Origin: Folioceros fuciformis
Taxonomy: Eukaryota
Reading direction: 5' to 3'
Assembly: GCA_049999805.1 (NCBI GenBank)
Contig: JBNGIO010005430.1
Coordinates: forward strand, 1 to 44,100
Length of the DNA: 44,100 nt
How positions within the stretch are numbered: the stretch's first letter is position 1; every line of letters starts with the position of its first letter. The translations under genes were made by a program, and so were the position numbers. The notes under the pieces are model-generated. The model did not search any database. It was not told the DNA's origin and worked only from the letters and a program-made list of their open reading frames with translations. Positions 1 through 44,100 of this stretch are shown piece after piece.

Positions 1-1206
1 CCAAGTGGATGACGAGGCATCAATTGCTCGAAGACTGGAATCCCACCCACTGCAGGTCCACCACTGTTCCAAAAAAAGGAAATCAGCGACAGGTAGTCCC
101 ATCACCGTCCCGAAATCAGTACGTCCGAGACAGGTAGTCCATCAGTGTGCAGAAATAGAAGACCTTCGTATCAAAGCACACAGAAGCACAATCGACGCAC
201 ATAACTGTACCAGCCAAGTACTCAATAATCTGGAGAAACTTCCACTGCTTGGTGTCCTTCCTGTCAACCTTTGCCACAAAATCAGTGTAAGGTGGACACG
301 ACATGCCTGATGTCTCATTCCGCCTGCCCACTGACTTCGCGACAAGAAAATAGCAGTCACAGGAATAGGGTTGTACACGACATTCTACCTTGCGGTAAAA
401 CACAGGCGCCTGATTGTCTTCGCAGTCTTCTTCAAATTTTTGGCCAAGACCAAAAGCAAGCGTTTCTCTGTTTGTTGCTGTTTCAAATTCAAGTAGCTGG
501 GTTCAGCCATTGCTGGTACCGTGATGATAGTGTCCCTGCTCATGGTCTTGAGCAAAAACTTGAAGAAGGCCATGTCGACATGCTGGGATTTTGGAACCAA
601 AGTTCTGCTTGCGATAGTGTGCCACTATCCTTTCATCAGGATTCAGGAGTTGCAGTGTCCCAGCCCTCTGCAAACCTCGATGCATGCTTCCAAGTTCAAC
701 CTAGAAACATCCATCGAAATGCAATCCCAGAAACCCTTGCCATTTCTCCCGCCTGCCTACTTCATTGTGCCTCCTCCCAAGCGACAATCGCCAGCTACTG
801 AAGCAACAAGCCAGACGGATAGTCTACCTGCAACATTTTTCGGAGAGGCTGAGGCTCAAGGTTGCAGGCTTATGATCGATCCTATCACAGTAGAAACTGA
901 CAGGATTCAGGGACTTATTTGTCATCTCCAAACACATTTGACATGCACATTTTGGCCATACGAATGTATGGCCAAAATGTGAGACCTGAGAAGGAGGTAC
1001 TGCTGTGAACTCCTCAGCAAGAACAGACGAGAAGAAAAGGCTGTGCAACATTGCACCACGGAACGGATGTATGGTAGGCGTTGAGCAAGCTGCAGGTTAA
1101 GTTTCCCTTACATTATCACTAGAAAGAGAGACAAGCTGGCAAGCTGCATACTCCTTGCACCTGGCCCAGGAGAAAAACTGAGCGAATTCGTTCGTTAAGA
1201 TGTCCA

Positions 1207-3680
1207 TCAATGATGACCCCGACATGAACAAGAACCATCTGAGAAATGGTGTACTTGGTGGGCATCTCTGATAATGATCTCGCGCTTCTCAAGCCGTGAC
1301 AACGTCTTCAAGCTACTGTGGCAGTCATTGCACATGCGCAGATTTTTGGTAATCAGCAAAGGTGTGCCATCTGGGGTTTTCAGGAGACCATATGCCAAGG
1401 CCAGTATTTCTGCATGTCCGCATAAGACATCTTCCTTCTCCCCAGCAGAGACAGCCTTGAGCAACAGGCCTGTTTGTGGCATCATGCCCTCTTCCTCCAT
1501 CGTAATCACATCAATATTGCTGAGCAATGCCGGAAACTCACAGCTCTTCTCTCCCACACAAAATTGATGCACCTTGTTCTTTACCTCTATGCATGCCCTT
1601 GCAGACTTCTTCCAAGCACCTGCAGCCTTTCTCAGGTTCTCCACACGTTCTAAATCCTCATACCTACCAGCGTCTGCATACAAGTTGGCCATAAGTACAT
1701 AAGCAGTTGCATTGTCAGGTTCCAGTTCCACGAGATGCTGGAAACACCGGCTGGCACGCTCTGCATCACCATAACTGTTGCAGGCACTAAGCAATGACCT
1801 CCACGATACAGAATGATCGTCAAATGGCTTAGTATTCAGAAAGGTCTCTGCCTCGTCCAGACAGCCCGACCGTCCAAGAAGATCGACCATGCAATTATAG
1901 TGGTAATCCGTGGGCACAATGCCATGCTCCTCCACCATTATCTTAAAATACTCCTGGCCCTCACATACCAGGCCTGCATGGCTACATGCCACCAGCAGAC
2001 AAATAAAAATCGTCTCAGTAGGCTCATGACCTTGCTCACACATCTCTTCAAAACATTCAATTGCAGACTGAGCATCACCATGTTCTGCATAGCCATTGAG
2101 CAGAGCACTCCATGTAACTGCATCTCGTATGGAAAGCCTCTTAAAAACCCTGCGGGCATCATCCAGCCTACCGCATTTAACATACATATCAACCAAGCCA
2201 TTACCGACGAGCAAATCATCTCCCAATCCCTGCTCCTCTATCTGCACATGCAACTGCTTACCCTGAAGCACGGCCCCTACATTAGCGCATGCCTGAAGGA
2301 GGCATACAAATGTGACCTGATTGGCAGGAGTTACACATTGTTGTTGCATGACCACGTACAGATCAAGGGCTTCTTGCGCAAATCCATTCTGAGCGTATCC
2401 TGATACCATGGATGTCCATGTCACCAGATCCCTCGTGGGCAACCTGTCAAACACTCTACGAGCATCCTCTAGACTTCCGCATTTCGCATACATGTCCACA
2501 AGACAGTTCCCGACAACAAGATCAGATTCCAGTCCTCTTCGCTCAATCTGTGCATGCAGCTGCTTGCCTTGGTGCAGCGCTCCAGCCCCAGCACAAGCCC
2601 GGAGGAGACATGCAAAAGTGTAATGATTTCCAGGAGTCATACCTTCCACCTGCATACGTGCATACAGATCAAGAGCTTCTTGCCACATCCCCAGCTGCGC
2701 ATACCCTGTGATTAAGGCAGTCCACGTCACCACATCTTTAGACGTCATACCTTCGAACAGCCTACAAGCATCTTCCAAGCTCCCGCACTTGGCATACATA
2801 TCCACCAGAGCGTTACCAACAAACACGCCTAGCCTCGTCCCACTCTCCACAACATCACCATGAACCTCCTTCCCTGCAGCCAAGTCCGATGCACCAGCAC
2901 AAGCCTTGAGAACTGCCACAAATATATGGTCATCTGCCTGGACAGTCGACTCCCGCATTCTCCGGTACAGCGCTATAGCCTCTGCTGGCTGCCCATGCCG
3001 AGCATACGCTAAAATAATAGAAGACCACATGTACGAATTAGGAACAGCGACGGTGTCAAACACACGTCTTGCTTCGTCCAGCTTCCCATGAGCGGCATAC
3101 ATACCTATAATATGGTTAGCCAAGAACGCGCTCCCCTCATACCCACACCTCAGACAAAGGTCATGCACACGCCTCCCAAGCACGAAAGCCTTCTCCGCTA
3201 CACACCTCTTCAACATCCGGTACAGCAGCGACTCACTTATCACACGACCCTGCTTAACAAGTCGGTCCAACTCCCTAACAGCATCAGCCAGCTCTCCTTC
3301 CTCAGGCCGCCTGCTCAACCGTTCCACCAAAACCCCGCTCACCCNNNNNNNNNNNNNNNNNNNNNNNNNNNNNNNNNNNNNNNNNNNNNNNNNNNNNNNN
3401 NNNNNNNNNNNNNNNNNNNNNNNNNNNNNNNNNNNNNNNNNNNNGCCCCCCTTACAGCCACCTTGGAACCCACGCACAAGGACTTCCCTCTCTCCCGCAG
3501 CTCATCCTCCAAAGTCTTGTACCTGACACCAGGTCCGCCTGGACTCCCCTTCCCCGCCAGGACTGATGAAGGACATGCATGGCAGTCCCAGGCCCATAGC
3601 CAGCTCGGCTGCACCCGAGCAGCTTGCAGTGAAGACTCGGGCAGCACAGCCCGCAGCCCTGGCTGCACCAGCAGCGCCAT
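1207..3680 (-). CDS. PLS-class PPR protein with E1/E2 and a DYW:KP-type deaminase domain (organellar RNA editing factor, U-to-C candidate)
   Basis: ORF 1207..3477 shows repeated P-L-S motifs (LVDMYAKCGSLEDA, VTWTALITGYA, TFACLLRACA). These are followed by WKKSARACIEVKNKVHQF, GHAEILALAYGLL, KNLRMCNDCH and the C-terminus CSCRGHH. The likely true ATG is at 3680 (MALLVQPGLRA..., transit-peptide-like). A 100-N gap at 3345-3444 breaks the frame, so the N-terminus is inferred. Confidence 0.93.
3345..3444. other. assembly gap (100 N) inside the PPR 5' coding region
   Basis: Run of exactly 100 N. Confidence 0.99.
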
Positions 3681-3828: not shown

Positions 3829-4139
3829 TCATCCCATCTCCAGGAGCCAGCTTTCTTCACGACGGAACATCATGTGTCTAGGAGCCTGAAAGGCGCGATT
3901 CGAATTGCTGAACCCGACTCCCAATCTCCGTTGCTCTTGGCCCTTCAATGCCATGTTCCCCTCGAAAATAAATAACGCTTCCATAAGTCTTTCATGTATC
4001 CTATGGTGAAGCCATTCCACGAGGTCGTTTTTCTTCTTTCAATCTTACGATTTATTTCATTCCAAAAGTCTGTAAGATCTCTCTTGCTCTTCAAGGTCTT
4101 TCTCTCAACAATCCTCGATTGTACGTGATGCTTATCCAT
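3829..4139 (-). pseudogene. frameshifted, truncated paralog fragment of the 4199-5110 unknown protein
   Basis: Two overlapping short ORFs (3945..4139 and 3829..4020). The second carries G-x10-RLGV...MFRREESWLLEM, which matches G-x10-RLGV...MFRRSVIFKLEL in the + strand ORF. Confidence 0.45.
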
Positions 4140-4198
4140 CCTCCCTTAGCTCTGCAAGCTCTGTTTTTTTTAACAGCAACACTCTACTTGAGCTTAAT

Positions 4199-5110
4199 GT
4201 GCTATCCTCTCTCCCCGACTTTGAAAGGAATCCTTTATTTTACAATCACCCAACAATTTTTGATGTTGTCGCTTGCAGGCAACTTGTGAGAAGTGTGCAC
4301 ATACAAGTTATGGAATCATCATCTGCAAAATTGGACACTATTGCAATAACTCCATCCTTACCTAACCTTTCTATATTCAAGCTTGATGTTTCCTCAATTT
4401 TCAAAAAAAATCGAATAGAGGTGCACATGCAAGATACAGAAACATGTGTTGATATTCCATTCGGAGGTGGACAGTGGATACACCTCAAGATCAAGAAAAG
4501 CACAAAACATAACGATTTGTTGAAGGACATGTTAGTAAGACAAATGTACCACGACTTGAACTTAGTAAGGCAGCTTAATGGCCCATGGGAGGCTAATGAG
4601 AAGCGACTGGTGCGATTAGGTGTAAGGTATATAAGGACAGAACCTGAGAGTCCTGAAAGAGGAGTAATAATGAAAATGTTTCGAAGGTCAGTGATCTTCA
4701 AGTTGGAGCTGGAACGTTCCATTGTGCGAGCCTTGTCAAGGGACACCACAGTTTTTCAAGTCACCACAAAATGGGATCTTGAACAGAGATTGAACTACAT
4801 TCTACCCATAAGCATTGAAGACTGGACAAAAGAGTTTGCAACAAGTTGGGTGTACGATGGGTTCAAGAACCGTATTAATGACTTTGTTGATTGTCTGATA
4901 GAACTGAGTCATTTAGAGAGGTGGACAGAAAGCATATTATACCACAATGTTGAGTTGATTTCAACATCCGATAAAGAGTGGCTCAAGGACATATTGGCAA
5001 AATTTCGAATGAATAACAAAGTTCTTAGACGCCACTTGGCAGCAACAATACATGAGATGGCCACATCTACGTCATATGTAGATCTTGAAACTTCAGATGA
5101 CAATGAATAG
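4199..5110 (+). CDS. hypothetical protein (303-codon uninterrupted ORF, family not recognised)
   Basis: A 912-nt open frame in AT-richer DNA with globular-protein-like composition. The first in-frame ATG is at 4310. A possible acceptor (gcttgcAG) ends at 4278, so this may be one exon of a spliced gene. Confidence 0.55.
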   Translation: MLSSLPDFERNPLFYNHPTIFDVVACRQLVRSVHIQVMESSSAKLDTIAITPSLPNLSIFKLDVSSIFKKNRIEVHMQDTETCVDIPFGGGQWIHLKIKKSTKHNDLLKDMLVRQMYHDLNLVRQLNGPWEANEKRLVRLGVRYIRTEPESPERGVIMKMFRRSVIFKLELERSIVRALSRDTTVFQVTTKWDLEQRLNYILPISIEDWTKEFATSWVYDGFKNRINDFVDCLIELSHLERWTESILYHNVELISTSDKEWLKDILAKFRMNNKVLRRHLAATIHEMATSTSYVDLETSDDNE

Positions 5111-5168: not shown

Positions 5169-5373
5169 TAGTAGTGGATGAGTTGAGATGAGACATTGTT
5201 TGTATTTAGAAAGTTTCTGGAATAAAAGTAGGTGTCACCTTCTAAAACTAGCCCCAACAACATAGGTATGCAATAGTATTGGATAAGTTGAGATGAGACA
5301 TTGTCTGTATCTAAAAGGTTTCTAGGATAAAAGTAGGTGTCACCTTTTAGAACTAGCCCTAACAACATAGGTA
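5169..5373. repeat. tandem duplication, 2 x 105 bp
   Basis: GGATRAGTTGAGATGAGACATTG...TAGGTGTCACCTT...AACAACATAGGTA occurs at 5176 and 5281. Confidence 0.9.
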
Positions 5374-5494
5374 GGATGGCTTGTATGTTTTCAAAGCGAT
5401 AATGATCAGATCCTACAAATCTTCCTGAGTTGTGCATCTGCATAATCTCCCCAGTCTTCCTACTTTTGCAAAGAATGCGGGGAGAAATAATGCC

Positions 5495-6108
5495 AAGCTT
5501 GAATTGTGCATGTGTACTCCCCACTCCTGTGAAACATGGATAAAAACAAAGACAAGCTTGATTTGTGTCCGTGCACTCCTACTCCTACAAGATGGAGATA
5601 GAAACAAAGACAGGCTTGGTTGGTGTGCACTCCCCAATTCTTCCAAGATGGAGATAGAAGCAAAGACCAGCTGGATTCGTGTATCAGCACTTTCCACTCC
5701 TACTAAAAACGGATACAAACAAAGACGACCTTGATTGGTGTGTATGTGCACTCCCCACTCCTGCAGAAGGCCGATAGAAACGAAGACAAGCTTGATTGGT
5801 GTGTACTGAATGTGCACTCCCCACTCCTGCAAAAGGCCGATAGAAACGAAGACAAGCTTGATTGGTGTGTACTGTATGTGCACTCCCAACTCCTGCAAAA
5901 GGCCGTTAGAAACAAAGACAAGCTTGATTGATGTGTGCATATGCAGTCCCTAGTTGAACAAAAAGCGCGTAGAAACAAAAGACATGCTTGATTGATGTAT
6001 GCGTGTACTCTCCCTACTCCTGCAAAAGGCGGATAGAAACAAAGACAAGCTTGATGTCTGTGTGTACAACCCCCGTCCCTTGGAAAGGCGGGTAGAAAAC
6101 GAAAGACA
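5495..6108. repeat. degenerate minisatellite array, ~10 units of ~56-66 bp
   Basis: Consensus approximately AAGCTTGATTGGTGTG(n)GCACTCCCCACTCCTGCAAAAGGCCGATAGAAACAAAGAC, repeated about 10 times. Confidence 0.92.
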
Positions 6109-11670: not shown

Positions 11671-11684
11671 CCCGCAGGCTGATT

Positions 11685-11980
11685 GCTACTTGGTGCTAGA
11701 AAGCTTGTTTGGTACTTGGTGCTGGGAAGCGTTTTGCTACATGATGCTGGGAGCTTTTGCTACTTCGAGCTGGGAAGCTTTTCTTACTTGGTGCTAGGAA
11801 GCTTCAGGATAGCTGCTAGTTGTGGCAGGTGAACGACGATTACTTTAAGTCCCGCGTTTTGCTACTTGATGCTGGGAGCTCTTTGCTACTTCGTGCTGGG
11901 AAGCTTTTTATTACTTGGTGCTAGGAAGCTTCAGGATAGCTGCTAGTTGTGGCGGGTGAACGACGATTACTTGAAGTCCC
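11685..11980. repeat. nested tandem repeat: ~22-bp subunits within 2 x ~125-bp units
   Basis: CTACTTGGTGCTRGGAAGCTT subunits. The block ...GCTTCAGGATAGCTGCTAGTTGTGGC.GGTGAACGACGATTACTT.AAGTCCC is duplicated at 11731-11853 and 11857-11980. Confidence 0.88.
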
Positions 11981-12046
11981 GGAGTTGTACTTCGTATTAT
12001 TTTCTATTATTAAGAGAGGGACAGTCCCATACACTTCGAAGGTAAC

Positions 12047-12141
12047 GATAGTTGTGCATTGGAGATCAAGGGGATAGTGGTGCATTGGAGATCAAGGAGA
12101 TAGTTGTGCCTTGGAGATCAAGGAGATAGTTGTGCATTGGA
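12047..12141. repeat. tandem repeat, ~3.7 x 26 bp
   Basis: GATAGTTGTGCATTGGAGATCAAGGR units. Confidence 0.9.
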
Positions 12142-15556: not shown

Positions 15557-18213
15557 ATGGTTGTGGACAGAACCCGTTTCGCTGAAGTTGCTTCTCGCTT
15601 TCCTCTTCCTCGAGGTCAGTTTTTCGAGCTTTGGTGGAGCTTGGATCTGAATACGGTTGTGGAAGGGGGCATGAGCTCGTGGTGATGTGATTTGATGCTG
15701 CAGGCTTGAAGTTCTCGTATGGAACGGCTGGGTTTCGGGCAGATGGGTCGCACCTCATGTCCACGGTGTTTAGGTGTGGAGTTCTGGCTGCTTTGCGGTC
15801 TCTTTGTACCAGGCAGGTGACGGGGTTGGTGGTGACGGCTTCACACAATCCGTTGCCGGATAATGGGATCAAGCTGGCGGATCCGGAAGGAGGCATGCTT
15901 GTGATGGAGTGGGAAGGGTATGCAGATGCATTGGCCAATGCAGGGGACGGGGAATGTATGCTACAGGTGAGGCATGATGGAAAATCAGTAGAGGAGGAGG
16001 AGGAGGAGGTGCAGGATCGGTTTTGTTGGACTTAGCTTGGGGTTGGGTTGATTCCAGGTTGTGGATCAGATTGCGAGGAGTGAAGGAATTCGGGGAGGAA
16101 TGAATGCTGGTGGGAGAGTTCTTGTTGCCAGAGATACCAGACCCAGTGGGCAGGCACTGGTTGCTGCAGCAATTCAAGTATGATACAAGCTTTCAGATGC
16201 AGATGCAACAGGCACGTTATGTTTAGGACATCTGGTTTGTGTGCGTGCATGTCTGGAGGAGGCAGAGGGAGTGCTTATTTTCTGATTTGGTTAGTGTTTC
16301 TTGCTTTGGGGTGTAGGGTGTGGAAGCAGTTGCAGGTTGTGTGGCTGAGGATATGGGGGTTCTTGCGACCCCACAGCTTCATTGGATGGTTCGCACTAGG
16401 AATCAGGGTCTGGACAGCTCAGAGACAGCTTACTTCACTCAACTTATGGATGGCTTCAGGTGATTGATCATTGCCTCTTCTTGTGGCATGGGGTGACCGC
16501 GTTGCCCGAGAGAATGGAAGGCAAATGACATTCAATTGCGAATTATTTACTCCAAGGCCTACAGTTTGCTGCCTTTATTTGCAGAGATCTGGTGGAACTG
16601 GGGAATTCCGGGGTCGCGGATGTTGTGCATGTGGGCCCTGTCGTGGATGGAGCGAATGGTGTTGGGGCTCTTAAGCTGGCGGATTTGCAAAGATATCTGA
16701 CGAAGATAAGTTTGGAGGTTCGAAATTCAGGGATGAAAGGGGACGGTGCCTTGAACGAGGGTGTTGGAGCTGACTTCGTGCAGAAGGAGAAGGCAGCTCC
16801 TCGAGGGTTTGGGAGTCCAGGGGACATCGGAATCAGGTTTGTGTTGCGGGGATGATGGGCATTCATTTCAATGTTGTTTGAATGCTTCTTTTTACCAAGG
16901 AATGTGATACACGATCCAGCTAGTGTTGTTCATGGTGGATCAGTCAGCTTTTTTTACAGCAAGTCCATGATTATGATTTGGGGGTTTGATCTTGTCACAG
17001 AGGGTGTTGGCGTGATGAGTTTTTGCTTTGGTTCTTCACAGGTGTGCATCACTAGATGGAGATGCGGATCGACTGGTTTACTTCTACTTGACGAGCTCTC
17101 CAGAAGGAGCCCCAAGTATGCACATTCTGGATGGAGATAAGATCTTAACTTTGTTTGCTTCTTTCATCAAGGACGAGCTCCAAAAGCTCTGCAGCGAGAA
17201 ATCTTCCGGGAGTGGAGTGTTTCTTCTCCCCGGCTATGGCTACGCAAAACTGGGTGTAGTGCAAACTGCTTACGCCAATGGAGCTTCCACGCGATATCTG
17301 AAGCAGAATGTTGGTGTAGAAGTCGCTCTCACCAAAACTGGAGTTAAGCATCTGCACGAGAAAGTAGCTGAGTATGATGTCGGCATATACTTCGAGGCAA
17401 ATGGACATGGCACAATTTTATTCAAAGACGGGTTGTTGGAGTGGCTGAGGACATCCGGAGCAGTCACCCAAGGTGCACTTCCCTTGCCCAAAGAATTGAC
17501 TGGTAGATCGGATGTGCGACTGGAATACCTCATTTCGGAGGTTGTGAGAGCTGAATTGATGCTATATGCTTCCATCACTTCTTACATGCGCAGAGACAGA
17601 AAAACATCAAGCCATTCAAAGACTAATGGCAGTAAGTCAGGTGGTAAATCAGGCAGTGGGTGACGCTATAAGTGGATTGCTGATGGTCGAGGCTGTCCTT
17701 CTACACAGAAACTGGTCTGTACAGGACTGGGATAAGGCGTATATCGATCTGCCAAGCAGGCAGACAAAGGTAAGTCACTGTCCAAGGTGGACATTATGAT
17801 GCAACCTTAAACCGTACTTACCTTCTTTGTTGTGCAGGTGAAGGTTGCAAACCGTGCGTCAATCAAAACTACAGATGCCGAGACACGAGTGGCCTTCCCT
17901 TCTGAACTGCAAGATGCCATTGACATGGAAGTTGGTGAGCACCCTCACACTCTACAATGTGATTCCACATTCTGTATGTCTTATCGTCATCCACCTGAGT
18001 TGTTACTGCTGCTATCCAGCAAGGTATCGTCAGGGGCGTGCCTTCGTTCGACCATCTGGAACAGAGGACATAGTCCGCGTGTACGCAGAAGCAAGTGAGC
18101 AGCAAGATGCTGATTTGCTAGCCGATCGTGTTGCTGCTTTCGTCCATAAGCTCGCTGGTGGAGTCATGCCGAACATTCGTGATGGATTTCCTGTAGGTTG
18201 TGCGGGCTTGTGA
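15557..18213 (+). CDS. DRT101: phosphoacetylglucosamine mutase (PGM3/AGM1/DRT101 family)
   Basis: FSYGTAGFR, catalytic TASHNP, RDTRPSG, TPQLHW, metal-binding DGDADR, YFEANGHG and RPSGTED are spread across GT-AG exons. An alternative in-frame ATG is at 15503. Confidence 0.95.
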
Positions 18214-18920: not shown

Positions 18921-21900
18921 ATGCGCTACCGTGTTGCACAGTTGAGCAGGTTGTTGAGGAATTTGGAAAATGCTCGCAGCCGCATTGCTGAGCATCTTCC
19001 TATTCTGAGTTTGATGAAGAAGGAGACAGCGACGGCAGTGCCGCGGGATGAAGAGTATTCGGTGAGATACAGCTTTTTTGGATGCTTGCTTTCTGATAGA
19101 ACTGAAGGAGAAGCATTCGTAAGCAGAGATATCGTTGATGGATTTTGGAAAGGCTGTTGCGGTGCATGGCGCACAATGGTAGTGGCTGTTGTTTGGTGAA
19201 AGGATACTTTGCAGTGTCCGGGAGTTTGTAGCTCGATATTCCAGTACAAATGGAATGCTGATCTGTTGCTTTGTGCTTTTAGGTGCATTGTGGCGAGGCT
19301 CGAATCAGCCGCTTTGAATCGGATACAGGGACATGCTCCTCATCCTCAGTCATACCTACCACTGGTGGCAGGCGCTTTCTGCGATTGGTTGGTTCGGTGC
19401 ACCTTCGCCAGCTGCGTGGAAGTACCTTTGCCGGACCAGCATTGTCGTCCACTGGCTATGGCTCCTATTCCACAGCTTCCGATGTTGCGAGGTTGGATAG
19501 TGGGGAGAAACTTGAGACCTCGGATTCGGCTGTTGACATCCAGGCTAAATCGATGAGTCCAGACTTCTCTGTGACGACGGATGATATTTGCTACAACTGC
19601 TCACTGTCCAGATTCCAACAGGGGAAAAGTGGCAAGTGTCCTGCTCACATTCTGAGGGATATGTCGTCTTCAATGTCTGATGGACTGAATGGAAATGCCT
19701 CAAATGGTGAAATTGATGACCCTACAAGGAAGCTGAAGAGGGAGTTTGAAGCTGCTAGGAGATGCTTCGAGCACATTCCTTCAGCATTGCATGGTTTGCC
19801 GAAAATGGATCCCAACGGTGAGGTCGTTTCTAACCTTGCAGTAGGATCAATCGAGGGCACATCTTCTTGAGGGCTAAATTTTTGTGGCCATGATTGTTTG
19901 TTTTGGTTGCAGGAGTATATGCCAATCACAATCTCAGACTCGATCGCATTGGTGTCTACGGCTTTGATTACGATTACACGTTGGCCCACTACACCCAGAA
20001 CTTGCAACCGCTCATCTACGATTTGGCCAAGGAACACCTTGTCAAGGAGGTGTGCCCAATTTTTGGTCTCTTTGGTTGAAGGCGACATTCATTTAAGCAC
20101 TTGATGCTTAGGGCTATTTTCAAAGTCATCCTTTTTCATACTGGAAGTCGGTTGTTCTGTGTGTGGTGGTGAATTCACAGTACAAATACCCAGCAAGCTG
20201 CTTGAAATTTGAGTATGACGCAGGGTTCCCAATTAGAGGCCTGTTCTATGATAAGAAGAAGGGCTATCTACTGAAGCTTGACTTTTTCCATTATGTTGAG
20301 CCAGCTGGATGCTTCTTTGGCCGTCGCCGGGTAAGAGCCTTTCGCATCCTGCATTTGCCATGTCGGATTTGGTCATATTTTCCATTCGACCTGGAGGAAA
20401 CCAATAATGCTGCCATGCCTGTTATAGATGACTCGAGCAGAAATAGAGGATGCGTACGGGGGGAAGTACATAAACAATGAACACATGCCCAACCTCGTTG
20501 CATTGATGGACCTGTTTTGTCTAAGCGAGGTGGGGTTCGAGCTACATTGCTTGTTTAGGAGGTCTTTTTTTATGCTTCGCTCATTCAAGGGAGATGTGTA
20601 CAGGTTAGGTGGTGCTGCTCAAACTCACTGGGTTGTTGGTACTGTAGGCGTGCCTCATATCAGATGTTATCCAGCATTTCGTGGATCAAGGAATGGAATT
20701 CGACTCAGCTTACGTGTACGAAGATGTGAAACGGTGCATTAGCCATGTCCACCAAAGTGGTCTGATGCACCAGGAGGTTCTACGTGATCCGGCGAAGTAT
20801 CTTGTGAAAAACGTGCGTGCACAATTCTGATCCCCGTGTTTGGAGGTCTGCCTTGTGTATGAAAAGCGCTGAAGTGCAACCTTGGAACTAAGTTGACGGT
20901 GTCCAAGGTTTACAGGGAGCGGTTGTGGAGATGCTTAAAGGCTTGAAGGAGAGGGGCAAGAAGCTTTTCATGTTGACTAACTCTCCCTTTCCATTTGTAG
21001 ATGGAGGCATGAGGTTTCTGTTCCAGGTGAATCCTGTCACGTTGTGACCTTCTAGCTTCGATGCATGACAAGTCCACCTTCAGATTGTGCCAGATTCTAT
21101 CATGCATGGCGTAACCAATGTTGTGGCTTTGTTGGTAGGAGGATGGGCGTGATGGGGAGACATGGAGAGCACTGTTTGATGTTGTCATCGCCTTGGCTGA
21201 CAAGCCAAATTTTTACACGTCTGAACGTCCTTTCAGGTAGTTTACTCTTGATGGGAGTAATTGAGATTGCGGGGAAGTGTTTAGCCCAGAATTGTGCATT
21301 TCCGTTACGCAGGTACTATAACTCAAGAAAGGACATTCTGACATTCAAAAGAGTAGACCAGTTTCAACCGCACAGTGTCTACTATCATGGCTGCCTGCGG
21401 AACTTTCTTGAAATCACGAAGTGGAGAGGGCCTGAGGTACTCTACTGCTCCAAGGTTGTACAGTTATCGCCTCCTTATACGTGCGCCTATAGACCCAAAC
21501 GTAGTTCCGTTCTGTGGACCAACGAGGAGAATGTTTTCTTGTCAACGTTTCAGGTTCTTTATTTTGGAGATCATCTGTACAGCGATCTAAGGGGACCTTT
21601 GAAAGCTGGGTGGCGAACGGCAGCCATAATCCGAGAACTGGAGGTGCTGTACCTACTCCTGCTCATTGATTCATGTGTGATGGATATTTATGTTTTTGTT
21701 GTTTCTTAGTGTCTTACACGTCATAGCGATCGCAAGTTTTGTTACTGTTCGCGGAACATCTCGTTGGGTGTTTGACGTATGTGTTCCGTAATCCTTGCCG
21801 ACCGGCAGAGGGAGATTGAGACCCAAAACAAGAATGAATATCGATTCCAGCAGGTACTGTGCAGCCCGTCCGCCTCTTATCAGATGCATGGTGGAAGTTA

Positions 21901-30105: not shown

Positions 30106-31712
30106 CTAGAACGACACTTTGAGACCCAGCAGTGCCATCAGCTGGGCTACGAACTCTGGGTGGGCAGGCCATGCAGGTCCAGTTACCAGATTTCCGTCAG
30201 TGAAGCACTTGGAGATGGGTTCTGGCTCCAGCCACTCTGCTCCTGCAAGAGCTACCATAGGCTTCAGAGCAGGGTAAGCTGTGCACTTCTTTCCCTGCAA
30301 AACCCAATGGAGGGCACCAAACCTGTCAAGACCCGAACTACAGGCAAACATGTCTGTGCGACAAACGAGCTAGCTCATTACCTTCAGCACATGTGCAGCA
30401 GCGAGGATCTGGGGGCCATGGCAGATGGACGCAATAGGTTTGCGGGCTTCATCGAACTCGCGGACTATTTGTAGAACCCTATCATTCAGTGCCAGGTACT
30501 CTGGGGCACGGCCTCCAGGAACCACCAGTGCATCGTAGGCTTCGGGGTTAACATCGTCGAAGGTGGCTGTGAGCTGGAAGTTATGGCCTGGCTTCTCACT
30601 GTACGTCTGTGCTCCTTCAAAGTCGTGGATGGCTGTGGCAACCTTGTCCCCTTTCTGCTTTCCTGGGCACACAGCATCCACTGTGCATCCCACGGTCTGC
30701 AGAGCCTGGAATGGCACCATGGCTTCGTAGTCCTCAACGTAGTCCTGAACACACACAGGCACGACAGAGTTGAGAGTGCAGTGCATTGCAGACATCAGCT
30801 TGTATGGTAGACATGGAGAGTGCATAGATGCCTTACACCGACTATCATCAGGATGGTCTTGGGTCCTCCACTGATCTTCCCCCCGAGAGTCTCGACGAAC
30901 AACCTGAGCCAGTCCGGGTGTCCCGGCCAGGCTGCTGCTGTCACCAGCTTCGAGTCCGTGAAGGCTGCAGAGATGGGCTGTGGGTCTACCCACTTCCCCC
31001 CTGCAAGCTCAACCACTGGCTTGACTGCAGGATATGCTGTGCAGTTCTTTCCATTCAAAACACCTGCAGCAGCAAGAATCAGCTGCCCGTGGCAGACGGA
31101 GGCGATGGGCTTGTCCGCAGCTGCGAAGTTCTTCACGATGTTCAGCACGTTCAGGTCCAGGGAAAGATACTCGGGAGCACGCCCCCCCGGTATCACTAGC
31201 CCATCATAGTCCTCGGGATTCGCATCCTCGAACGATTTGTTAAGGGCAAAGTTGTGGCCCTTCGACTCCGAGTAGGTCTGCAATTCCTCATGCCGGTCAT
31301 CCAATCCAGCCATTCATCCATCCCAGCAGGGTTGAAGGCACACCACAGAAACAGCAACCACGAGAAGGAGAGGCAGGCACCTGATATCCGACAAAGTCGT
31401 GCACAGCTGTGGCCACTGTGTCCCCAGATGCCTTGCCAGGACAGACGGCATCCACCTTCACACCGACAGCCTGCAACGTCTGAAAGGGAACCATGACCTG
31501 CACACACCCAACAGCCTTGAGAGATCGCTGCCCAACCCGACATCATGCGGCTCCTGAGCGGCATGCATGTCATACAGAGAGCTGAACGACTTCAATCCCA
31601 CGAAGCCACGCCTGCATGCAAAGGATGGTGGGCACAGAGTCCACGGACGCTTGACCTCATAATCCTCAACATAGTCACCGGCAATGAGCAGCACCGACTT
31701 AGACGCAGCCAT
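30106..31712 (-). CDS. DJ1D: DJ-1/PfpI tandem-domain protein (DJ-1D / glyoxalase III type)
   Basis: Two PfpI domains: [14 protein letters not shown]...PGGRAPEYL...ASVCHG and [13 protein letters not shown]...PGGRAPEYL...ASICHG. The protein ends [22 protein letters not shown]. Confidence 0.94.
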
Positions 31713-34870: not shown

Positions 34871-37423
34871 TCACGCAAAGAAGTGGCTATTTGCAACTTG
34901 CTTGACTCTCAGATGTCGGACATACCCAACGGAAAAACTGTGAACTAACCCATCCGTGCCGGCCCACCAGCTTTGCCCTGGCTGTTGCTTCCATGCCCTG
35001 CTCCTTCTTCTACTGGCATGGATCTTCTCTGCCTGTTCCCACATCTGGACACTGGTGTATATGTTCAACATCAACACATGTGCTGCAGCATCTTTCATGT
35101 CCAGCTTCACTGCTTCTTCAAAAGCATGGTGTCCAACTTCCAAATTGCTCCACTTTTGACAAGCGCCCAACAGCGTGTGCCAGATTGTAGGATTAGGAAC
35201 TGTGGGCATTGTCCTTACCAGACCCAGTGCCTCATCCAGTAGTCCAGCACGGCCCAGGAGGTCCACCATACATGTGTAATGCTCCACGGTGGGAGTGATG
35301 CCGTACTCTCTGGTCATAGCCTCAAAGTACTCTCGACCCTTGGTCACTAGACCTGCATGACTGCATACCGTTAGCACGCTAAGGAATGTGATGCCCACTG
35401 GTGGTATACCTTCCACTGTCATTGTCTTAACCAAGTCAAAGACTGATTCACTGTCTCCTTGGCAGGTGTAGCCTGCGATCAATGCACTCCAGGCCACAAT
35501 ATCTCTTTTGGGCAATGCATCAAACATCTGCTGTGCGTCAGCCATGCTGCCTGATTTTCCATACATGTTGATCAAACTGCAAGCTAAAAGAACGTCACCT
35601 TGAAGTCCTTGTTCTTCTATCTGGGCATGTAGTTGCCTTCCCAAACTCAAAGCTGCCACATTTGCACAAGCCTGAAGGAGGCACACGAATGTCACGGAGT
35701 CAGGTGCAGTGATGCCCTCTTCTACCATAGCCTTGTAGACAAGAAGGGCTTCCTGGCCCCTGCCCTCCTGGGAATACCCTGAAATCATTGCGTTCCATGT
35801 CACAGAATCCTTTTGACCGAGTCCGTTAAACACTTTCCGGGCATCCTCTAGACTGCCACACTTGGAGTACATGTTTACCAGACTGCTGACCACAAACACA
35901 TCAGCCTGATGTCCGCCTCCTTTAATCTGCGCATGGAGGTGCTTCCCCATCTTCAAAGCTGGGATGCCCACACTTGCACAGGCCTGCAAGAGGCACACAA
36001 ATGTCACAGAATCAGGCGCAGCAATTCCTCCCTCTTGCATAGCACTGTGAAGATGAAGGGCTTCTTGGCCCATGCCGTGCTGTGAATATCCTGCTATCAT
36101 GGCATTCCAAGTCACCACATCTTTCTGACCAAGCCTGTCAAATTCCCTCTGAGCGTCTCCGAGGCTACCACACTTTGCGTACATGTTTACCAAACTGTTA
36201 CATACAAACACATTAGCTTGATACCCTCGGTCTTTAATCTGCAAGTGAAGCTGCCTTCCTTTCTCCAAAGCTGTGAAGCCCACAGTTGCGCATGCCTGCA
36301 GGAGGCACACAAATGTTACAGGATCAGGTGCAGCCGTACCTCCCTCTTCCATAGCACTGTACACACGAAGGGCTTCCTGGCCGAAGCCCATGTTGGCATA
36401 TCCCGCTATCAAGGCATTCCATGCCACGACACTTTTCTGGCCAAGGTCGTCATGCACTCTCTGGGCCTCTTCCAAGCACCCACATTTCGCATACATGTTT
36501 ACCAAACTGCTTGCTACAAAGACATCAACTTCATGTCCTGATTCTGCAAGTTGCGCATGAAGCTCCTTCCCCTTCTCCAAAGCTCCGGCTCCCACATTTG
36601 CACATGCCTGAAAGAGGCAGGCAAATGTAACAGAATCGGGTACAACCTTGCCGTCTTCTTGCATCACAGTGTACAGATGAAGGGCCTCCAGACCCATGCC
36701 CTGCTGAGAATAACCTGCTATCATGGTGTTCCAGGTCACTACATCCTTCTGCACAAGTCCGTCAAACACTCTTTGAGCCTCTTCCAAGCTGCCACACTTA
36801 GCATACATATCCACCAAGCCATTACAGACACACAAATGAGGCTCAACCCCACTGCTCAAGACATCAGCATGCACCTGCTGCCCAGACGTCAAGTCTGCTC
36901 CCCTTGCACAAGCCTGAAGTGCTGCCACAAATACATGGCCGTCTGGCTGCACGCTGGACATTCGCATCCGATGGTAAAGTTCTATGGCCCGCCTATCTTG
37001 CCCATGTCTAACATGAGCAGAAATGATAGACGACCACATGAAAGCATCGGGTTGGGCAACCACGTTGAACACATCCACAGCGTCTTGCAACCTGCCATGA
37101 GATGCATACATCCGCAGGATGTGGTTGCACAGGAATGTGTCCGATTGACACCCTTTTTTCACCGTTAACCCATGGACACGGCGACCAAGAACAAGATCCC
37201 TTTGCACTGCACATTTCTTCAGGATAGCATAGAACAAACACTTGGAGATGCAACAGTCCGTCTGCACCAGAATTCCCAAAGCCTCAACAGCCTCATCGAG
37301 ATGGCCCTGATGGCAAAGCTCGTTCACGGTTCCAGCCACCACTGCCCTAAAGAATCGGGCTGCCAAGGTGCTACACCTGACAGGACCTCTTCCCACAGAT
37401 ATTGTGAACCTCAAGACAGCCAT
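34871..37423 (-). CDS. PLS-class PPR protein with E1/E2 and a WW-type PG box; DYW domain lost or truncated
   Basis: An intronless ~850-codon ORF with about 6 PLS triplets, E motifs (IWHTLLGACQKWSN...), then WKQQPGQSWWAGTDGLVHSFSVG and a stop. The first in-frame ATG is at 37423. An upstream exon is possible (acceptor near 37451). Confidence 0.93.
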   Translation of the reverse strand: MAVLRFTISVGRGPVRCSTLAARFFRAVVAGTVNELCHQGHLDEAVEALGILVQTDCCISKCLFYAILKKCAVQRDLVLGRRVHGLTVKKGCQSDTFLCNHILRMYASHGRLQDAVDVFNVVAQPDAFMWSSIISAHVRHGQDRRAIELYHRMRMSSVQPDGHVFVAALQACARGADLTSGQQVHADVLSSGVEPHLCVCNGLVDMYAKCGSLEEAQRVFDGLVQKDVVTWNTMIAGYSQQGMGLEALHLYTVMQEDGKVVPDSVTFACLFQACANVGAGALEKGKELHAQLAESGHEVDVFVASSLVNMYAKCGCLEEAQRVHDDLGQKSVVAWNALIAGYANMGFGQEALRVYSAMEEGGTAAPDPVTFVCLLQACATVGFTALEKGRQLHLQIKDRGYQANVFVCNSLVNMYAKCGSLGDAQREFDRLGQKDVVTWNAMIAGYSQHGMGQEALHLHSAMQEGGIAAPDSVTFVCLLQACASVGIPALKMGKHLHAQIKGGGHQADVFVVSSLVNMYSKCGSLEDARKVFNGLGQKDSVTWNAMISGYSQEGRGQEALLVYKAMVEEGITAPDSVTFVCLLQACANVAALSLGRQLHAQIEEQGLQGDVLLACSLINMYGKSGSMADAQQMFDALPKRDIVAWSALIAGYTCQGDSESVFDLVKTMTVEGIPPVGITFLSVLTVCSHAGLVTKGREYFEAMTREYGITPTVEHYTCMVDLLGRAGLLDEALGLVRTMPTVPNPTIWHTLLGACQKWSNLEVGHHAFEEAVKLDMKDAAAHVLMLNIYTSVQMWEQAEKIHASRRRSRAWKQQPGQSWWAGTDGLVHSFSVGYVRHLRVKQVANSHFFA

Positions 37424-37949
37424 GGGTTGTAGCACGCCCACGCCCTGAACCTGCAGGGTGCGGAGAGGGCGATGTTGCTACACCGTTGGACGATATACCG
37501 CCCCATGGACGAGCTTCCTGGTGAACACATTCACAGTGCCGTTCTATGTGAATGCACATGCTTAGGGGTGGCCGCAGTTGGGCTTCTCTCGAACACCATG
37601 AATCTGACGTTACCATTTCAGAGTTCCAGGAGTAGACCTGCGAAATAGTCGAAGCAATATCTCTCTTGCCACATTTTCTTCAGAATGAGGTTCATGGCCA
37701 GCAAGTTGCTGGCCCTGCGGAGCATCTGAGAATGGCTTTTGAGGTTGCCGCCGTGTCCAACATTCACTTGATCACTTTGAATGCTATCTCCTCTGCAAAC
37801 TTAAAGACTAGGTGCACAAACGGCTGAGATTGATCCAGCTCTTGGGCAATTCGACTACCCTGCCTGTGAAAAGGGAACACCACGGAATTCCGCACGAGCA
37901 AATGGAACCTGTGAAAATGTATGAACTAAACATGGACAAGGTCACAACT

Positions 37950-39830: not shown

Positions 39831-40480
39831 CGCCTCTTTTGCATTCGGAAAATAGCTTGCAAGCTTGTAAACAACCATCGAGTATAGTTGATGTTTAATG
39901 TTCCATCGTTTAAAAAAATCATCACATGTCTTTGAAGAACTTCTACCGGAAGGTGAAGACTTTATTGTATATGTAATAGACAGATAAAGTAATTCTTCAC
40001 AACGTTTAAATTTTGTACCCCTATATCGTGGTAGGGATGGCATTGGTACTTCTTCTTCAACCTTATTTGCAAGCTCTTCAACTTGAGGGAATAGTGAATA
40101 CCACCACACTAACCCTTCAATAGGGACAAAACCCTAAACCCTTGATATCTTCCTTTTTCTTAGTACTTTCTACTTCTCCAAGTCTACCATAAAATTTAAA
40201 GTCATTCACTCCTCTTCTTCCATTTACCTACCCCACCTTAGCCGGCTAAATATCATACCTAGTCTGCCACCCAGTGGTAGTCCTTTGTGAAAGAAACGAG
40301 CTTTCTCACATGGCAATTTGTCACACTTCTCTCTTTTGCCCTTTAATCAATGTCTAGTGCATACAAGTATTGTAGCTATATTAAAGCACCAAAGCTCCTT
40401 CTATGGGTAGGAAGCATGCACAGCATTCATCTTAACGTAGCACCAAAGCAAATGCTGAAAATGTAAAGCATGCAAACCAT

Positions 40481-40635
40481 TCATTCAGGGAGAGACTAGT
40501 GATTGCTACTACTTCAATTTCATGGAACACCACTCATTTCAGGATATGCTAGTAATTGCTACAACTTCAATTCCATGGAACGCTAGTCATTTGAGGAGAT
40601 ACTAGTAATTGCTACAATTGTAATGCAATGGAACA
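40481..40635. repeat. tandem repeat, ~3 x 53 bp
   Basis: TCATT..GGA.A..CTAGTRATTGCTAC.AC/TTCAAT..CATGGAAC at 40481, 40534 and 40587. Confidence 0.85.
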
Positions 40636-40942
40636 TAGAGACACCAACTTGTTCCCTTATGGGCTTGCACCATGTTTTATGCTAAAACGTGAAACATTTT
40701 AATCATATTTGTGGACAACTAATAATATATTTTTAAACCCATGGAACGGCGGAGAATGTACCTTTTGAGAAGATCCCAATAACTATTTAGGGAATTCCCA
40801 TTTATCCCATTGTCTACCGTAATAAGAAATGGGAGTAGGGCCGAAGGTCCCATTTAGTAAGGGTTAACTATAGAACCCTATACACAACACATTTCCTTCA
40901 AGGGGGTTGTCCTGTTTTACGTTTCCTAGGTGCTAGCCCCTT

Positions 40943-41189
40943 CAAATATCATTCTCAGAAACTACCTACTGCTCCCAAAATGACATGATGTGGAATAATA
41001 AAAGTCCTACCTACCACCTGTGCTAAAGCAGCCGTTTAAGCTACGCTTGTTATAGTTCTTAAAACCGCATTGGCCAATGCTCGTTGCAAAGCAATGGATA
41101 CGCGTTGTGAAAAGAAGGCCACCACAGAGGAAAGAGGGAGAACATCATTCCTTTTACTCTAATAAACCTTGGCGCACTCCTTGATAAAC
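40943..41189 (-). mobile_element. short 3'-end copy of an RLE-type non-LTR retroelement
   Basis: About 247 bp, similar but not identical to 41571-41818. It encodes remnants FIKECA and QRVSIALQRALANAV. Confidence 0.6.
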
Positions 41190-41224
41190 AAGGAAGCTTT
41201 GAGATGATAATGCATCACTTTGAG

Positions 41225-41358
41225 ATGATGACTCATTACTTTAACATTTAACATGATGACTCATTACTTCAATATTTAAAATGATGACTCATCACTTTAA
41301 CATTTAACATGATGACTCATTACTTCAATATTTAACATGATGACTCATCACTTTCAAA
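41225..41358. repeat. tandem repeat, ~5 x 28 bp, each containing ATGACTCAT
   Basis: ATGATGACTCATYACTTYAAYATTTAAM at 41225, 41253, 41281, 41309 and 41337. Confidence 0.93.
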
Positions 41359-41470
41359 TGATAACAGAATAATTCCTATTATTGAAAAAAAAAGATGGAA
41401 AGTCCCATTTCCTCCAAAGATCAGAGTAACAACTCGAACAAGGCCAAAGGCCAAAATGGGTACTAGCCTN

Positions 41471-41570
41471 NNNNNNNNNNNNNNNNNNNNNNNNNNNNNN
41501 NNNNNNNNNNNNNNNNNNNNNNNNNNNNNNNNNNNNNNNNNNNNNNNNNNNNNNNNNNNNNNNNNNNNNT
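41471..41570. other. assembly gap (100 N)
   Basis: Run of 100 N. Confidence 0.99.
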
Positions 41571-42030
41571 CAAATATCATTCTCAAAAACTACCTACTAC
41601 TCCCAAAATGTCATGATGTGGAATAATAAAAGTTCTACCTACCACCTGTGCCAAAGAAGTCGTTTGAGCTACGCTTGTTGCTGTTCTTAAAATCGCATTG
41701 GCCAATGCTCGTTGCAAAACAATGGATACGCGTTGTCAAAAGAAGGCCACCACAAAGGAAAGGTAGAGAACATCATTCCTATTACTCTAATAAACCCTTG
41801 GCGCACTCCTTGATAAACCTTGAAAAGTCCTTACCCATAGCGCCATGTGTCTCGAGAGCAAGGAGATAAAAGTATGCCCGTTTCGCAGGGGAGAGTACTT
41901 ATGGACTTTGGCACTTGCATAACCCTCTGCTGCCCAACCAGGGATTAATGATGACGTGCTCGTAAATTGAATCCCTAGTTGGCTCCGTAACAACCACATA
42001 AGCAACACAAACATGTTCCCCTAGTGAAAA
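41571..42030 (-). mobile_element. degenerate C-terminal restriction-like endonuclease region of a non-LTR retrotransposon (CRE/R2-group-like)
   Basis: Frameshifted translation: VVVTEPTRDS / GWAAEGYASAKVHKYSPL..GHTFI / LALETHGAMGKDFSRFIKECA / FF*QRVSIVLQRALANAIL. This fits the K..KY / ET.G / R.S..LQR..A..I signature of RLE retroelement C-termini. Confidence 0.65.
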
Positions 42031-44100
42031 AATGATGGGCTCTAAGTGAAACCCCATTGCTTTTATACAAGGGAGGCTTAGAGACCCTTCAACCCTTCCT
42101 TAGACAAGGAGGTGAAAGGAGATAGAGCCTTATGAGCCTCCAAACGTAAAGAATTCCTGGCTTGCGTAAGAGATACCTACAAAGAAAAAACGCCATCTTC
42201 AATGCTTGAGATGAAACCTTCAACAAGAGGAAAATCTTGCAGCATAAAAATGAATGCATGAGATGAGACCTTCAACAAAAGAGAATTCTTGCAAGCAAAA
42301 AACGAGAGGCCAAAATTAGAGCTGAGAAACCAGAGAAAGGCAACTGAGGCATAGGCTTCCATGGCAAAAGCTAACCCCTCTAACCCCTCCAAAGGACTAA
42401 GATCTTAGTCTATACATTAACCCCTCCAAAGCACTAAGCTTAGTCTTAGTCTATACACTGTACCCAACCACTCCAAAAGGCTTTCCCATCATCGATACCC
42501 GATGGCCATTAAGGCAAATACGGTCAGTAGACCCGTGCGGATGCGCAACCTGATGTATCGTGGCTTCATATCGACACATCAACATACGCGACATAGCAGC
42601 AACATCAGTTTCTGGTTCCTATTGCATACTCGGGTTTTTGCACCCGTTCTTTGTACCTCCATTTCCATACCCGACTTTCCATACCCGGGATGGAAGGATT
42701 CCAAACCCGTTGGTTTGAAGTCCAGGTTTCAAATGCACTTCTTATCGCGGGTGAACCGATTTAAAAAGGAAGCGGTGCAGATGCGACAAGACGCCTAATC
42801 TGCTGCCCGCTGCAGATGGAGTCGGCTGGCTTCCTGGTAGTTTTCTTGTCCAAGAGGAGAGTGGCTGTGCTGGTTGAGACTGAGTTTGGGGTTGCGAGGA
42901 TGCGTAAACTCAAGATCTATTTGGTGGCATCAGGGCTGTGCTGCGATTTCTATTAGGATGGCAAAACTCACAATGGTTGCAGCCAAGGTCTTGCTTAAGG
43001 TGGTTTTGCTGGCACACGACTTGTGGGCTCCTAAAAGCCAGAGCTGTCAAGTGGCTGTGGAGCTGAGCCTGCTGGAGAAGAACTTGGAACACCACATGAT
43101 GGCGATGGGCGGCAACCAGTTTTGTTGCAGGAAAACAATAGCTTGGGCTCTTGGCATGTGTCTTGCAAGCAGCTGCCTAATTGTTTGCTGCCTCTGATAC
43201 CGGTGTATGCGGTGCAGTCAATGATGATAGTAAACTTCTGTCAGCCATTTTTGTAGGGGCCTTGGAACAGGAACTTTGGCACGCAATCAAGGATGGGCAC
43301 AAAATTTTGGGCATGGGGTTTCTGGAGGCGCACTGGGACACTAGACAAATACTATCTGAACTCCACTCACTCCGACAGCGTGTGATGATTTTCTTTCAAA
43401 CCACGTTGTTCATTACTTTCCTCGAAGTATGCAGCCTGTGTGTAGCCATTTCATGACAGTGATGCTCCTTTGTAGCACCTTGTTTTTATTTCTCTACTGT
43501 ATGCATGAGGCGTCAGGCCGCAGTGGAGACCATGGCACAGCGGGACGAGCTCCAGTTGGCTTTGTCACAGTTGCAAACTCTGCTCAGAAACCTACACTAG
43601 GACCTCTTCGATAGCAGTTGCCAAATTCTCAGCTTTTAAAACCAGAAGAGTGGATTTTGACCTCTAAGACAAAAAGCATAATTGACCCGATCAAAACTAA
43701 GTGCTATCTGCTATCTTCTCTCAGCACCCTACAAAAGTGGATCGGTCAACTTCTAAAACCAAAAGCCCCCTACAAAAGTGCATCAATCCACTCTTTATCA
43801 ACTAACTATGTTCCACCTCACCGTCTTTTTCTTCTTACACACAACTTCCTCCAAACCAACAAATCGTTTCAGTCTGTTTGTGCCCTCATTCTCAGCAAAA
43901 GTTTCCAACACTTATTTCCGTTGAGGTTGTTCGTATGCTTGTGCTACTAATTGTCTCACCTTCTGTTGAGTTTGCTCCATAATGCAAGCTATCCCAAAAG
44001 CTAAATCTGAATGCTCAAATGTGGTATCACATACTTCAGCACATGCCGTTTTAATAAAATCCAACCGTTTTTCTTTTGCCATCTCCAATTCTGTCTTACA

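Follow-up and report, generated by a model that had tools for sequence, protein, structure and literature searches.

A putative DYW:KP deaminase of the hornwort DRH type, probably crippled by an isoleucine at position 68, in a PPR gene that appears to be maintained

The window analysed here is a stretch of 44,100 nucleotides of Folioceros fuciformis DNA, and it carries a PPR gene on the minus strand close to its left end. The open frame at 1207–3342 (minus strand) comprises 711 codons and translates into a PPR-E-DYW protein, with Pfam matches to PPR families, to E_motif and to DYW_deaminase (E 4.9e-34), and these matches together with motif anchors give the layout PLS-E1-E2-DYW. The C-terminal part of the product reads ...AGAWKKSARACIEV...FCVGE...CGHAEILA...ITKNLRMCNDCH...CSCRGHH, followed by the stop codon. 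The gene is apparently nuclear and intronless, and has the following features:

1207–1608, minus strand: deaminase domain assigned to DYW:KP (DRH-type), 133 aa plus the stop codon (Pfam, alignment)
1405–1407, minus strand: Ile68 (ATA), which replaces the Lys or Arg after the catalytic Glu and is equivalent to KP6 K693 and OTP86 R895
1426–1548, minus strand: gating segment (KP positions 21–61) with the KP-type deletion, strongly diverged (identity comparison)
1582–1608, minus strand: KP box, KSARACIEV, with Ser replacing Pro at position 2 (alignment)
1609–1812, minus strand: E1 and E2 motifs (Pfam E_motif, identity comparison)
1813–3234, minus strand: PLS array of about 14 motifs, L1-S1-(P1-L1-S1)x3-P2-L2-S2 (Pfam PPR families and motif anchors; labels and boundaries set by eye)
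3345–3444, no strand: assembly gap of 100 N inside the 5' part of the PPR gene (sequence)
3445–3680, minus strand: probable N-terminus of the PPR gene, 78 codons from the ATG at 3680, putatively joined to the rest across the gap

The code pairs in the P1 and S1 motifs of the array are N/N, S/D, N/D, T/N, N/D, T/N and N/D, which are canonical under our motif labels. Read with the PPR code, the array would recognise a site of about Y-G-n-U-A-n-U-A-n-U at −16 to −7. The 78 codons that begin at the ATG look, by eye, like an organelle transit peptide. Within the DYW domain the codons (minus strand) lie at 1416–1414 for H65, 1410–1408 for E67, 1407–1405 for I68 (ATA) and 1347–1345 for K88, with the stop at 1209–1207. 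The residues of the Zn1 site (H65/E67/C93/C96) and of the Zn2 site (H97/H120/C127/C129) are all kept; A66 lies between H65 and E67, and M92 is also present, as is K88, the proposed nitrogen donor.

Elsewhere in the window we see a second PLS-type PPR gene at 34871–37477 (minus strand), an 868 aa frame with an E motif and no Pfam DYW match, whose product stops soon after a QPGQSWW...VHSFSVG box and so has a truncated, E+-like form. Exons of neighbouring genes for a cytochrome P450 (6194–6691), a phosphoacetylglucosamine mutase (17019–17663), a 5'-nucleotidase (21056–21709) and a DJ-1/PfpI protein (30795–31313) have no link to the DYW gene. There are also tandem repeat arrays at 5169–6055, 11683–12141 and 40469–42457, with periods of 16–127 bases, and a second 100-N gap at 41470–41569.

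Contigs of run X2, which has the same organism label and comes from another sample and another study and may be RNA, cover 2063 of the 2138 bases at 1207–3344, including the whole DYW domain, with 0 differences, and an X2 contig over 3473–3936 likewise shows 0 differences. The run gives no cover at 4081–5100 and is not counted toward transcription. Because X2 is identical over the DYW domain, the deviant residues are real, and sequencing or assembly error as the source of the odd motifs is ruled out. The translation and these contigs together confirm the motifs to which the first-pass annotation had drawn attention, namely the KKSARACIEV box, HAEI, a short segment and the CSCRGHH end.

The nearest proteins in a homologue search read CGHAEK inside the domain and CGDRH or CGGRP at its end. 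In a quick tree of 181 DYW domains (16 near-duplicate or truncated rows having been dropped), the query falls in a KP clade of 69 rows with an SH-aLRT of 96, apart from 112 PG-type rows, and within that clade it lies inside a 28-row DRH/GRP group with support of 94. In a finished tree of 33 rows it is sister to P0198, which reads HAEK and ends in RDRH, with support of 94/94, just below the strict threshold; as P0198 spans only 101 columns, branch lengths in this tree are not comparable. The terminal branch of the query is 0.50–0.51 long, the medians being 0.32–0.34, and is not flagged as long. Profile HMMs, which we built from the groups of the present analysis and which are therefore not the published ones, score the query at 215.7 bits for DRH/GRP, 173.6 bits for the fern type, 172.2 bits for other KP-like domains and 156.4 bits for PG. 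Counted from the second K of the KK, the domain is exactly 133 aa long and has no xHP of DYW:PG; this length and the absence of xHP are described as standard for DYW:KP, of which DRH and GRP are two hornwort variants (PMC9478123). Both class-defining features, HAE rather than HSE and M92 rather than V95, are present, the published marks of DYW:KP being HAE or HCE for HSE and M92 for V95 (PMC9478123, PMC11845758). The sequence comparisons thus support assignment of the domain to DYW:KP, hornwort DRH type. KP membership had been proposed in the first-pass annotation, together with a phylogeny and HMM comparison as a check, and it is upheld by the tree, the profile scores, the length, HAE, M92 and K88. 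Membership of DYW:PG is rejected, as the PG box, HSE, the 136 aa length and the DYW end are absent and the PG profile gives the lowest score. Homologue and representative searches did not find a close orthologous protein, the best matches being 64% over the full domain and 75% over 70% of it, and a metagenome scan gave four distant loci at 41–62%.

Several of the unusual letters are ordinary among these relatives. The literal Lys-Pro pair is absent, the query having Lys-Ser at its N-terminal box; judged from the alignment, this pair gives the class its name but varies among members. At position 2 of the box, 22 of 27 DRH/GRP-clade rows carry Pro (the other five Leu, Val, Ala or Ser), as do 55 of the 68 KP-clade rows having a residue there, and the box of P0011 reads KRSAKACIEV, that is, Arg-Ser. 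At the C-terminus the 28 clade rows have R130 in 3, G131 in 4, H132 in 3 and H133 in 14; the triplet is DRH in nine, GRP in four, DHH in two and GHH, as in the query, in none. Each letter of RGHH occurs in relatives, and the GHH end is rejected as a novel feature. The shortened segment after FCVGE that the annotation had singled out is present but not unusual: as 133 aa is the usual KP length, it is the known KP deletion and is likewise rejected as a novelty. Equal weight had also been given to KS, HAEI and GHH; a KS-type box and the RGHH letters are variation seen among natural relatives.

On the alignments, and by analogy with the enzymes described below, Ile68 is the one of these deviations that matters. 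Of the 284 homologues, 283 have Lys or Arg at position 68, including all 73 of the HAE type, and every one of the 28 DRH/GRP-clade rows has K there; selection of the homologues by score means that degenerate domains are under-sampled. Among the 284 homologues the sole other non-basic position 68 is that of P0066, a PG-type domain with HSEV. Five conserved lysines have been mutated in KP6, and K693A and K713A abolished U-to-C editing (PMC11713852). KP6 K713 corresponds to Lys88, which gives a numbering offset of 625, so that K693 is position 68; K693 aligns with OTP86 R895, and the equivalents of the four other tested lysines are kept in the query (K1, K51, K58 and K88). In OTP86, R895 bonds a zinc-binding cysteine and offsets the charge of the site, and R895A has no C-to-U activity, but this protein is only slightly soluble (PMC7611903). 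The analogous substitution in a bacterial cytidine deaminase, R56L, lowers kcat/KM about 50-fold, and some natural bacterial cytidine deaminases carry His, Cys or Thr there (PMC9897663). Because I68 replaces a residue required in KP6 and OTP86, the query probably edits poorly or not at all. We found no description of a natural KP protein without Lys68 in the literature searched, where the founding family surveys and image-only supplements may list cases, and a text search for HAEI with DYW gave only unrelated papers among the 10 of 694 matches listed.

The low identity of the DYW domain comes mostly from the gating segment. Against 12 DRH-type relatives, S1-P2-L2-S2 has 57% identity in the query versus 56% among the relatives, and E1E2 has 56% versus 56%, whereas the whole DYW domain has 60% (55–64% individually) versus 63–75%. 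The mean identity of the gating segment is 32% versus 43–62% among the relatives, whereas that of positions 62–133, at 73% versus 71–83%, lies in the normal range. At 10 of 67 clade-conserved columns the query differs from the consensus, against 0–8 for 27 of the 28 members and 17 for P0075, a count that favours the members since the consensus was built from them. An AlphaFold model has pLDDT of 72–91 over residues 71–130, with a core that matches DYW structures, and below 50 over residues 31–71, the gate, which we do not use as evidence. The query carries the U-to-C set C6, A116 and V119 plus two of the C-to-U set, G64 and H133. In KP6, the three residues equivalent to C6, A116 and V119 make a U-to-C-only enzyme, and E64G-F133H gives C-to-U only (PMC11845758). 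These residues are common in the clade (C6 12/27, A116 25/28, V119 26/28, G64 28/28, H133 14/28) and so do not predict the direction of editing.

Pieces from two other organisms, in run X6, which may also be RNA, and in run X7, tile the gene at 89–95% identity and are probable orthologues by sequence; in one X6 contig the DYW end continues into the same 3' flank as in the query. A single low-depth piece of 243 bases from X4 was excluded. Differences from the query amount to 182/2118 (8.6%) in X6 and 162/1926 (8.4%) in X7 in coding DNA, and to 139/937 (14.8%) and 64/470 (13.6%) respectively in the 3' flank, with Fisher p values of 5e-7 (X6) and 1e-3 (X7), although the flank need not be neutral. 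Among the 12 of 17 indel rows listed, the coding indels in X6 and X7 are compensated one-base pairs. From these comparisons the PPR gene appears to be maintained, with decay limited to catalysis and the gating segment. At codon 68, an X7 contig (organism D) lacks the Lys-type letter at 1406; its depth is 61.1 of 780.8, below the 10% listing threshold, and the codon could be of Ile, Arg or Thr type. The change at this codon is therefore probably shared and may be old. All five X6 contigs at 1406 have the Lys-type letter and are probably paralogues.

The 3' flank at 164–1161 is about 85% conserved in organisms C and D, with many small indels; X2 and X6 each have a contig that carries it together with the DYW end, and it is either a long UTR or belongs to an adjacent gene. 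On 1191–3400, X2, X6 and X7 each have 385–477 contigs that match the gene in part at 85% or above, which shows a very large PPR paralogue family in those organisms.

We favour, at somewhat better than even confidence, the view that the gene encodes a catalytically crippled DYW:KP editor of the hornwort DRH branch that is kept as an RNA binder. The sequence, the placement, the rarity of I68 and the conservation are computed here, and the effect of losing the residue is taken from papers on other DYW domains. The protein would enter the plastid or mitochondrion, where its intact PLS array would bind a single transcript immediately 5' of a pyrimidine. The DYW core would still fold and bind zinc, and with no basic residue after the catalytic Glu the Zn-thiolate charge would be uncompensated and the active state unsteady, giving weak or no editing. 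We propose that continued usefulness of RNA binding explains why the gene persists: the protein could mark a site for another deaminase in trans, like E/E+ PPRs in flowering plants, or have an editing-independent RNA role. Against the crippled-editor reading, all eight zinc and catalytic residues, K88, K1, K51 and K58 are kept and positions 62–133 are normal, which is more than an enzyme long inactive would need to conserve. The published mutants are Ala substitutions in other backbones (with the poor solubility of R895A), natural bacterial cytidine deaminases can have His, Cys or Thr at the site, the terminal branch is not flagged as long, and one clade member, P0075, has more departures than the query under a consensus that favours members.

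A possible but unlikely alternative is that the protein is a working U-to-C editor in which other changes compensate, or a slower rate suffices, and Lys88 attacks uridine C4 as proposed for KP6. H65, E67, C93, C96, K88, C6, A116 and V119 are kept, the core fold is confidently predicted over 71–130 and matches DYW structures, and the orthologue in organism D also lacks a Lys-type letter at 1406, so that the change is maybe old and tolerated. However, K693A lost U-to-C editing completely in KP6 (PMC11713852), C6, A116 and V119 are frequent in the clade and give little information, KP1, a DRH-based designer, was inactive in E. coli and HEK cells (PMC9478123), and PMC11845758 calls the activity of natural KP proteins unknown. 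The first-pass annotation had called the protein a natural U-to-C editor; an isoleucine at a site basic in nearly every homologue and needed in KP6, together with the inactivity of KP1, speaks against this, and its other suggestion, early decay, comes closer as far as catalysis and the gating segment are concerned, but not for the gene itself, which looks maintained.

It is improbable that the protein has lost the U-to-C route and retains weak hydrolytic C-to-U editing, or that it edits in both directions. G64 and H133 are present and KP6 E64G-F133H edits C-to-U only, but both are clade consensus residues; KP6 itself is bidirectional (PMC9478123), and hydrolytic deaminases can survive loss of the equivalent Arg at a lower rate (PMC9897663), but R895A kills C-to-U editing in OTP86 (PMC7611903). 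In the portions of PMC11713852 examined we found no report of C-to-U activity for K693A, and K88, which restrains C-to-U editing in KP6 according to the same paper, is kept. We give as little credence to a retrocopy in early decay, with the entire gene functionless or untranslated, although the start codon and the reading frame through the 100-N gap are our reconstruction and hornworts have more than 1400 PPR proteins (PMC10030945), many from retroposition (PMC13386178). Against it are the 711 open codons 3' of the gap, the retained code pairs that we class as canonical, the better conservation of coding DNA than flank in two other organisms and the compensation of the coding indels listed.

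A more specific version of the crippled-editor reading, which we put forward tentatively and think rather improbable as it stands, is that the protein is a naturally inactive KP pseudo-deaminase retained in several hornwort species, which would mark a U-to-C site while another KP protein supplies catalysis in trans. In C-to-U editing recognition and catalysis can sit on separate proteins (PMC9522420), E+ PPRs are enriched in hornworts (PMC13386178), and a lysine cross-link model has been put forward for U-to-C editing (PMC11332814); in the portions of the literature examined we found no trans-acting deaminase for U-to-C editing. If true, it would suit the proposal that the reaction cross-links the lysine of the enzyme itself, and reverse editing would split recognition from catalysis as C-to-U editing does.

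The query resembles the DRH-subtype KP proteins that are the basis of designer KP1 (PMC9478123) in its PLS-E1-E2-DYW layout, KK.A.A.IEV box, CGHAE and terminal His, but differs in having I68 for K, S2 for P, G131 for D and L100 for T, and a strongly diverged gating helix with Pro at 26. The GRP subtype belongs to the same hornwort-type clade and has Gly at 131 in common with the query, but GRP rows group in a supported clade that excludes it, and they keep K68 and change K101 where the query does the opposite. Activity was seen in just three of the seven designers, KP2, KP3 and KP6, the GRP-type KP2 and KP3 being U-to-C editors (PMC9478123). With the other four tested lysines in place, the query is a natural counterpart of the inactive mutant KP6 K693A (PMC11713852), although KP6 has a fern-consensus backbone, the mutant has Ala where the query has Ile, and the comparison is by published description. 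The DYW:PG editors OTP86 and DYW1 (PDB 7o4e/7o4f, 7w86, 9kfx) have the same fold and zinc ligands, but their PG box, HSE, 136 aa length and DYW end are all missing from the query (156 against 216 bits). The E/E+ PPR factors that recruit DYW1, DYW2 or MEF8 in trans (PMC9522420) offer the same proposed mode, recognition without own catalysis, although that model comes from Arabidopsis C-to-U editing and the DYW domain of the query is still full-length.

Judged from its sequence, the protein is a new, probably crippled member of the known DYW:KP family. The mechanism of U-to-C editing is still open, and this protein is a poor candidate for a first natural U-to-C enzyme, better ones being the intact DRH and GRP paralogues; what it offers is a ready natural test of position 68. 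Should I68K revive a dead enzyme, this would show KP editors decaying toward the E+ forms enriched in hornworts and raise the question of catalysis supplied in trans; should the protein be active, the lysine requirement of KP6 would not be general.
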